Below are positions 5,475 through 6,981 of a DNA stretch of 9,543 nucleotides, one piece after another. The DNA comes from a virus (Duplodnaviria > Heunggongvirae > Uroviricota > Caudoviricetes): IMG/VR virus record IMGVR_UViG_2695420728_000007, positions 1 through 9,543 of that record; one strand, given 5' to 3'. Under the pieces are notes generated by a model, which ran no database searches, was not told where the DNA came from, and worked only from the letters and a program-made list of their open reading frames with translations. Every line of letters begins with the position of its first letter. Positions within the stretch are counted from its first letter, which is position 1. Made by a program: the position numbers and the translations under genes.

Positions 5475-5667
5475 GGTTCTTTCCACCATCTGAAAAATGA
5501 TTCTTTAAAATACCTGACATGTAATACAGAAAAAACACAAAACCATACCTTAATTAAAAACCTCATCATCAAGCAGATATGCATGGATAAACTACAAGAC
5601 GAGATATAAACCACCCTGCATTTAAATAAACAATAAACAACATCAGAAAAATAATTCTGCTCTATGG

Positions 5668-5694
5668 TTTACAATCAAAAATATCATTTATACT
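5668..5694 (+). promoter_or_regulatory. Candidate sigma70 promoter for the 111-aa ORF
   Basis: TTTACA (5668-5673), 15-nt spacer, TATACT (5689-5694), about 40 nt upstream of the ATG at 5735. The spacer is short, so this is weak. Confidence 0.25.
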
Positions 5695-5734
5695 TTTCAG
5701 AACATCACCAGCAAGGCATAAACAAGGAAACTAA

Positions 5735-6070
5735 ATGAAGTGGATTGTGATTGATACAGTTATCCAGCCATCATGCGGAATATCTTTTTCAGTCATATGG
5801 AGTAAAATAAAATTAATAATCTGGTATCAATCGGATGCTTTCTTACCTCCTGAAAGTATATTTACACTGACTCACACAGGCATCATGCTCAATAACAAAG
5901 TGCTGCCTGTAACCATTTACAACGTAGTACCATTCAATAAAACATTCTGGAATTTAATCAAAAACAGCCAGGAATGCCCTACAAATACAGATAACGTATT
6001 GAATGAATGCTTTAATAACCGTTGCACTCTGCAAATATGTCCTTATGGGCTAAAACAACAAAGTCCATAA
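5735..6070 (+). CDS. Hypothetical AT-rich orphan protein (111 aa), antisense to the late operon
   Basis: ATG at 5735 with AAGGAA 7-8 nt upstream. Low-GC composition unlike its neighbours. 6 of 13 Ile codons are AUA. Four Cys in the C-terminal third ([26 protein letters not shown]). No family recognised. Confidence 0.5.
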
Positions 6071-6084
6071 GGAGTTTACTCACA

Positions 6085-6125
6085 TCTGACAAAATCAATA
6101 TAAACAGCCCCTCCGGAGAGGGGCT
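6085..6125 (-). terminator. GC-rich hairpin with minus-strand U-tract (terminator-like)
   Basis: Perfect 8-bp stem AGCCCCTC / GAGGGGCT with loop CGGA at 6106-6125. On the minus strand it is followed by GTTTATATTGATTTTG; on the plus strand the downstream sequence is not T-rich. Confidence 0.45.
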
Positions 6126-6517
6126 GGAGAGTGGCGCTATGTGCCATTGCATGGTGCCGGGTGCCTCCCGGTGAATTCAGTACCAGCACCTGAATCCGCG
6201 ATTATCCCATATACCTACTCGCTGATTGCCCCTCCGCACAGGGGGATTCACCATGCCAGTTTCTTTTAACAAACTCCCCGCAAACCAGACAACAGTCAAC
6301 CGCCTGAATTGTGAAGTATTTAAAAATTTCTCCCGCTAACTGATACCCGGCTAACAGTCTGGCGTTTTCTTTTTCAGCAACGGGAAAGCAGCAACCACCA
6401 CACCCGCCACCAGCACACCGTCAGCCAGCACTGACATTATCCGGCTGCTGCAATGCCATTCACAAAAACAGTAAGCAATCACTTTTTACCGTAACCGGTG
6501 ATAATCCAGATATGTAT

Positions 6518-6871
6518 CTACCCCAGATGAGTAATCCGAAGTTCATCCATACCACAGGTCCTGGCTATTCTGTTGTACTCCTGAACAAGAGCAAATAATT
6601 CTGAATTAGCAACCATGAACTCATCGCAAACCCTCTGTATAGCATCACTATTCAGAATAATAACGTCTCTTCCCGAAAGACGATCAGGAGCACAGAACAA
6701 AACTGTCAAACGGCTGAAGGCCTTTGCTCGTGCTGCATTGACTATATCAATACGCTGCCTAAGGATGAAACACCCCGACGCCTCATCAATATTCACTCTA
6801 CCCACACCATATGAATGATAAATATTTAATGCTGAAAAAACCATTAGACCGTATAACAAACACTCAATCAA
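6518..6871 (-). CDS. Hypothetical protein (117 aa from TTG at 6871; 108 aa from ATG at 6844), first ORF of the cargo slot
   Basis: Protein-like composition (e.g. DEFMVANSELFALVQEYNRIARTCGMDEL). Neither start has a clear SD. 6 of 11 Arg codons are AGA/AGG and there are 3 AUA codons. No family recognised. Confidence 0.4.
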   Translation of the reverse strand: MIECLLYGLMVFSALNIYHSYGVGRVNIDEASGCFILRQRIDIVNAARAKAFSRLTVLFCAPDRLSGRDVIILNSDAIQRVCDEFMVANSELFALVQEYNRIARTCGMDELRITHLG

Positions 6872-6981
6872 TACTTAACAGAACTTTTATTTTTGACAAA
6901 CATATAATGTTTTCAACAATATCCTGAGCCAGGTATATTCCAGTATAAGGCTCTGCCGGAAGGAATCTGGAAGAATGAATA

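Follow-up and report, generated by a model that had tools for sequence, protein, structure and literature searches.

Mosaic contents of the Shiga-toxin moron site in a stx-negative lambdoid prophage: a late-strand gene pair, an STnc100 small RNA gene and a convergent iraL

The interval between the tRNA block and the sialate esterase gene of the prophage DNA analysed here (9,543 nucleotides, hereafter the window) very probably represents a moron region of mosaic structure, of a kind typical for stx-negative lambdoid prophages, and three units can be distinguished in it. At the position where Stx phages carry stxAB, there are two genes on the late strand, orf117 and a gene for a DUF3927/TciB-like membrane peptide. 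The second unit is an sRNA gene of the STnc100/PasD family with its own terminator, and the third is iraL, which faces STnc100 from the opposite strand in a convergent arrangement and would be expressed from its own sigma-70 promoter (Table 1). The original prediction had placed the contents of this slot in no family. Now, however, they can be assigned to the IraM family, DUF3927, STnc100 and phrog_2873. Described families exist for all of the elements, and reference genomes already contain the same arrangement. The slot is therefore a module that is common among prophages and for the most part known, rather than a new toxin or defence system.

Table 1. Positions of the late-region and slot features in the window
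Feature	Position	Strand	Basis or remark
DUF968 gene	9393-8587	-	
RusA gene	8577-8200	-	
Q antiterminator, 273 aa	8203-7382	-	PF03589
Putative late promoter pR', TTGATT-16 nt-TAAATT	7349..7376	-	directly past the Q stop codon; read from sequence
tR'-like intrinsic terminator, AACCCGCCACCGAGCGGGTT then TTTTATT	7282..7301	-	terminator scan
tRNA, CAT anticodon (Ile2 type)	7163..7238	-	ARAGORN; Rfam
Degenerate remnant of middle tRNA-Arg(TCG)	7065..7155	-	alignment
tRNA-Arg (TCT)	6982..7058	-	ARAGORN; Rfam
orf117, PHROG 2873 protein, conserved 92-aa core from GTG 6796	6518..6871	-	at stxAB position
DUF3927/TciB-like protein, 43 aa, one hydrophobic segment	6351..6482	-	PF13064
STnc100 (PasD/STnc100 family) sRNA gene, terminator 6126-6105	6096..6285	-	RF02076
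iraL, RssB anti-adaptor, IraM family, 111 aa	5735..6070	+	NF007393; CFT073 identity
iraL promoter and 33-nt leader	5666..5734	+	-10 TATACT 5689-5694; transcript start 5702
nanS-p-type SASA carbohydrate esterase, 623 aa, right slot border	3618..5489	-	Pfam DUF1737, SASA, DUF6645

Read on the minus strand, the whole window corresponds to a lambdoid prophage's late region. The order from which the original prediction started, that is, Q, tR', tRNA-Ile2, tRNA-Arg, a slot of 1.5 kb, nanS-p and the lysis genes holin, lysozyme and Rz, is indeed present (holin, YdfR, lysozyme and Rz/Rz1 follow the esterase), and so are the two ORFs that it had listed in the slot, the minus-strand one of 117 aa and the AT-rich one of 111 aa. 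All the elements of a Stx-phage slot, namely Q, tR', the tRNA-Ile2/Arg block, cargo, STnc100, nanS-p and the lysis cassette, are found. The stretch between Q and the tRNAs (7382-7238) is without the DNA methyltransferase gene of about 1 kb that most close relatives have there, and also without the IS200C present in CFT073. The putative pR' matches the consensus at 8 of 12 positions, which is below the threshold of the promoter scan. If it functions as plausibly expected, transcription ending at the tR' hairpin (7275-7376, minus strand) would yield an RNA of about 65-70 nt in lysogens, and the origin of such a short RNA would be analogous to that of lambda 6S RNA and that of StxS of Stx phages. 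StxS is reportedly an activator of RpoS (PMC7547250).

The tRNA block of these prophages is usually an Ile-Arg-Arg trio. In the window, the gene for its middle member, tRNA-Arg(TCG), has degenerated to a remnant that keeps both acceptor ends, while its anticodon arm and centre are swapped for an unrelated G-rich stretch; neither ARAGORN nor Rfam calls this remnant, and ARAGORN counts three tRNAs in FORC_069 and P13374 and two in the window and mEp460. The homologue of the tRNA with the CAT anticodon is annotated as tRNA-Ile by PGAP in the homologous prophages of FORC_069 and CFT073. Rfam hits of Trp_leader and Plastid-ycf2 over tR' and the tRNA were both under their gathering scores and were discarded as noise. 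On the other border, the longest ORF of the esterase starts at 5489, while the start given by PGAP in FORC_069 corresponds to 5474 and homology to other phages resumes at 5475; therefore, the slot is taken to end around 5475. Probably, the true start of the esterase is ATG 5474 (MAFKHYDV...), and the first five codons of the longest ORF would be left untranslated.

Borders of the mosaic were drawn by blastn of the slot against fetched loci. The tRNA block (7278-6974), STnc100 (6326-6103) and the esterase from 5475 are common to the Stx2a phage P13374, Nil3 and phi296, the latter two of which are stx-negative. Since the same three elements flank stx2AB in P13374, where the interval from the tRNA block to STnc100 is precisely the place of stx2A-stx2B, the equation of this slot with the moron site of stxAB is borne out. 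In P13374, the anti-sRNA AsxR is encoded convergently just past STnc100, in agreement with the convergent sRNA pairs at the Stx moron site described by Tree et al. In the window, the stxAB position (6974-6330) holds orf117 and the DUF3927 gene, a segment found only in the CFT073, FORC_069 and mEp460 lineage, and the stx2AB interval of P13374 has no counterpart detectable by blastn. The second slot, from STnc100 to the esterase (about 6100-5476), holds the convergent iraL and is found only in iraL carriers. Thus, the proposal that the cargo replaces stxAB is right for orf117 and the DUF3927 gene but not for iraL, which corresponds in place to AsxR of P13374. The late region of the P13374/933W type otherwise has the same order as the window, with a tRNA block 85% identical, whereas Q differs in type and size, being encoded by a 144-aa gene in P13374 against 273 aa in the window.

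The two halves of the slot move separately: mEp460 has the left half only and vB_EcoS-640R1 the right half only. Other prophages carry tciA-tciB at the site, or an arrangement composed of a TolA-like gene, an AraC-type regulator, a second orf117 allele and four STnc100 copies. The comparison across prophages that had been recommended thus gave a twofold answer. Orf117/DUF3927, tciA-tciB and stx2AB do alternate at the site, and the module itself is common, since 863 of 5426 complete E. coli genomes, among them CFT073 and O104:H4 outbreak strains, contain the slot in full, with identities of up to 99.5%. The window as a whole has no exact or colinear megablast match among the complete E. coli genomes in the collection. 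In extraintestinal and enteroaggregative E. coli, the Shiga-toxin moron site of stx-negative lambdoid prophages serves to carry host stress regulators, an RpoS-stabilising anti-adaptor and an sRNA, which is already in the literature. What is added here is modest: a precise map that puts iraL in the second slot and convergent with STnc100, at the place taken by AsxR in Stx2 phages, and the observation that a conserved phage gene of 92 aa, situated where stxAB would be, is absent from each RefSeq annotation sampled.

Judged from its sequence, the 111-aa ORF is iraL, an already characterised gene. The ORF is AT-rich (local GC 0.32-0.40), and its product scores 162 bits against the IraM family model NF007393 of NCBIfam (cut-off 121) over residues 1-110. 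It is the same as WP_000871291.1 of CFT073 at 111 of 111 residues (100%), which is labelled "anti-adapter protein IraM" in that genome. The CFT073 gene is iraL, and its product has been shown experimentally to be an RssB anti-adaptor that stabilises RpoS; both RssB binding and protection of sigma-S from ClpXP were demonstrated for this identical protein (Hryckowian et al., 2014, PMC4045071). By analogy with it, iraL in the window is predicted to stabilise RpoS via RssB. A published 5'-RACE sequence of iraL, ACATCACCAGCAAGGCATAAACAAGGAAAC, has a single match in the window, with zero mismatches, on the plus strand at 5702-5731, from which a leader of 33 nt ahead of ATG 5735 and a TATACT -10 element at 5689-5694 are predicted. 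For the identical gene, production of IraL from a sigma-70 promoter belonging to the gene itself has been shown in growing lysogens (PMC4045071). Thus, the expectation of a lysogenic-conversion gene in the slot is satisfied by iraL, though by a gene characterised before (PMC4045071), while that of a payload driven by Q and pR' fails for iraL, because this gene runs against pR' transcription and a start has been mapped for its own sigma-70 promoter.

The likeness to CFT073 extends to the surroundings of the gene. In its prophage next to potC (the potB prophage island), the protein, the promoter and the mapped start of iraL are identical to those in the window, the gene order is the same, and the neighbours are likewise the tRNAs, an unannotated orf117, DUF3927, STnc100, iraL, the esterase and the holin, with 97.4% DNA identity over 7280-5300. 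Differences are found at three points: after Q, IS200C is present in CFT073 and no IS in the window; the third tRNA is intact in CFT073, against a degenerate middle tRNA in the window; and the esterase gene is truncated in CFT073 but full-length in the window. The segment comprising iraL and its promoter is found in 1446 of the 5426 complete E. coli genomes. The relation to IraM of K-12, encoded adjacent to e14, is more distant: the two proteins share 62% identity over 107 residues, and the window protein matches the solved IraM chain (PDB 8twd) at 9e-32. Both belong to the family defined by NF007393 and both are RssB anti-adaptors, but K-12 iraM differs from iraL of the window in promoter region and genomic context. 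IraM contacts both domains of RssB while IraL contacts only the N-terminal one, and the two stabilise RpoS under different conditions (PMC4045071). Alignment revealed no homology between the region upstream of iraL and the K-12 iraM promoter, and the idea of a PhoP-type regulation copied from iraM was dropped since the upstream regions are unrelated.

Between the two larger ORFs of the slot, the original prediction had described a hairpin-rich segment of about 400 bp with tiny ORFs. Such a segment does exist, but it consists of known elements, DUF3927 and STnc100. The latter was found with the Rfam covariance model RF02076 at 132.4 bits (gathering score 47) over the full model positions 1-206. 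It ends in an intrinsic terminator detected by the terminator scan, its predicted fold has -74.6 kcal/mol with a z of -2.26, and the window sequence is matched by the qPCR primers that have been published for STnc_100 (PMC12370729). STnc100 has been placed 75 nt downstream of the stx2 operon, and its expression in STEC has been reported (PMC12370729, a paper of 2025); in the Stx2 phages, it is located 45-75 nt past stx2B. Sequence comparison thus identifies it as a conserved landmark after stxB in Stx phages. A link of STnc100 with PasD sRNAs has been drawn, with STnc100 hits near prophage Pas sRNA genes, and PasA and PasD are associated with sialate esterase genes (bioRxiv 10.64898/2026.05.13.724894); the window shares with these sRNAs the full-length match, the terminator and the place beside a sialate esterase gene. 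The promoter of STnc100 was not located from the sequence, and neither AsxR nor AgvB was found in the window by Rfam search at E up to 1. While the window has one copy of STnc100, some STEC prophages have up to four, three of them in tandem. In the STEC1585 prophage, for instance, four copies lie in the slot (locus L010, 4075-4287 and 6047-6756), and the tandem three are immediately upstream of the esterase. Opposite STnc100, PGAP annotates a pseudogene for an 'incomplete hypothetical protein' in FORC_069 and CFT073 (L001, 5715-5840; L008, 23270-23395), corresponding to 6141-6266 on the plus strand of the window. This pseudo-CDS is probably a protein-homology annotation artefact over the sRNA gene.

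How would these units act in the life of the prophage? [quoted passage not shown] Upon induction, polymerase modified by Q may run past the terminator of STnc100 and transcribe iraL in antisense, probably silencing it; such late read-through would oppose iraL because iraL is antisense to the late transcript.

The ORF of 117 codons requires a closer look. PGAP leaves it unannotated in 29 of 29 full-length genomes sampled, no Pfam or NCBIfam family includes it, it starts with TTG or GTG behind a weak ribosome-binding site, and its N-terminal 25 codons are poorly conserved, so that one may wonder if the ORF arose by chance in spacer DNA that encodes nothing, with only DUF3927, STnc100 and iraL being functional. 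Such a reading is quite improbable in view of the behaviour of the sequence. In an allele with 55% identity, the frame is still open and only one indel, itself in frame, is seen, and the substitutions between the two alleles are distributed over the three codon positions as 36/33/55, that is, with a third-position bias, giving a dN/dS of 0.33 at a dS of 1.1. Homologues of 91-99 aa with 26-62% identity were recovered by profile searches from Citrobacter, Salmonella, Morganella, Serratia and Xenorhabdus, and the match to phrog_2873 has an E-value of 3.2e-57. The alignment with these homologues begins at GTG 6796, and hence a product of 92 aa (orf92) starting there is probably the real one. When a family alignment of 19 sequences is supplied, the confidence of the AF2 prediction for orf92 rises up to pLDDT 87.6 (pTM 0.74), and the model is a two-helix hairpin, predicted to be cytoplasmic, whose structural matches are generic coiled coils only. 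Synteny of PHROG 2873 is conserved in the late region downstream of Q. The orf117 segment (6500-6900) is present in 1186 of the 5426 complete E. coli genomes and at least 99% identical in 1168 of them. Thus, orf117 behaves as a gene, and it looks like a small gene systematically missed in annotation.

The 43-aa peptide encoded next to it matches DUF3927 (PF13064) at 1.3e-26 with 92.7 bits (gathering score 25) and the TciB-like phrog_1470 at 1.5e-11. It contains the hydrophobic stretch IMSVLADGVLVAGVVVAAFPLL, and proteins of the PF13064 kind are about 45-50 aa long with one such segment; in FORC_069 and CFT073, PGAP names its homologue 'DUF3927 family protein'. In the tciA-tciB morons, which consist of TerB-like and DUF3927 genes, as in phage JLK-2012, the TciB-like peptide is likewise encoded between the tRNAs and STnc100; the window, by contrast, lacks the TerB-like tciA, whose place upstream is taken by the PHROG 2873 gene. 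Diverged prophages repeatedly show the order Q..(MTase)-(AraC)-orf92-(TerB-like)-DUF3927-holin, and because of this recurrence orf92 and DUF3927 can be regarded as a late-region pair. They are the sole late-strand genes of the slot that lack an assigned function.

When is this pair expressed? The promoter scan gave no convincing promoter for orf117 or DUF3927, with six promoter-like sites found against 4.9 expected; this is no more than chance would give, and neither orf117 nor STnc100 is therefore credited with a promoter. Because the pair has no convincing promoter of its own, it is probably late in the cycle. Transcription of both genes would come mainly from the late operon once Q antitermination has set in, and their products may act in the lytic cycle, possibly on the envelope or in lysis. 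To go further is tentative: the PHROG 2873 hairpin and the DUF3927 peptide might be a late-expressed pair working, for example, in lysis timing, envelope modification or superinfection exclusion. If this is true, their role has been overlooked since RefSeq skips orf117 in every genome sampled. It is unlikely, on the other hand, that the two, as morons, are expressed in the lysogen and form, together with the AraC-type and TerB-like neighbours of other prophages, a module for host physiology or regulation. An AraC-family regulator does immediately precede two of the orf92 alleles, genes of the TerB-like and DUF3927 kinds co-occur, and a weak promoter-like site is found upstream of orf117 (6916-6889). 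But such sites are at the chance level given above, the AraC and TerB-like genes are absent from the window, the pair is co-oriented with the late operon, and in phages with no esterase between the pair and the holin it is directly upstream of the lysis genes.

The same two genes, being on the late strand at exactly the stxAB position with no assigned function, are what is left for the proposal of a novel toxin, anti-host or anti-phage defence payload expressed at a very high level from the Q-antiterminated late promoter. This proposal is now very improbable. No slot ORF has a hit to a toxin or defence family in Pfam or NCBIfam, those of stxA and stxB included, and the defence-protein models of PADLOC-DB 2.0 gave zero families at E up to 0.1 for five slot ORFs. 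Orf92 is a plain helical hairpin, and the largest ORF, iraL, is a known regulator on the opposite strand. The module is present in 16-27% of complete E. coli genomes, commensal-type and animal isolates included.

Returning to the late-strand pair, a distant branch of orf92 (phrog_4827, about 21% identity) is found in a context quite unlike the late-region slot: in locus L016 (478-798), it belongs to a Mu-like baseplate module and lies just before a DNA_circ_N gene.
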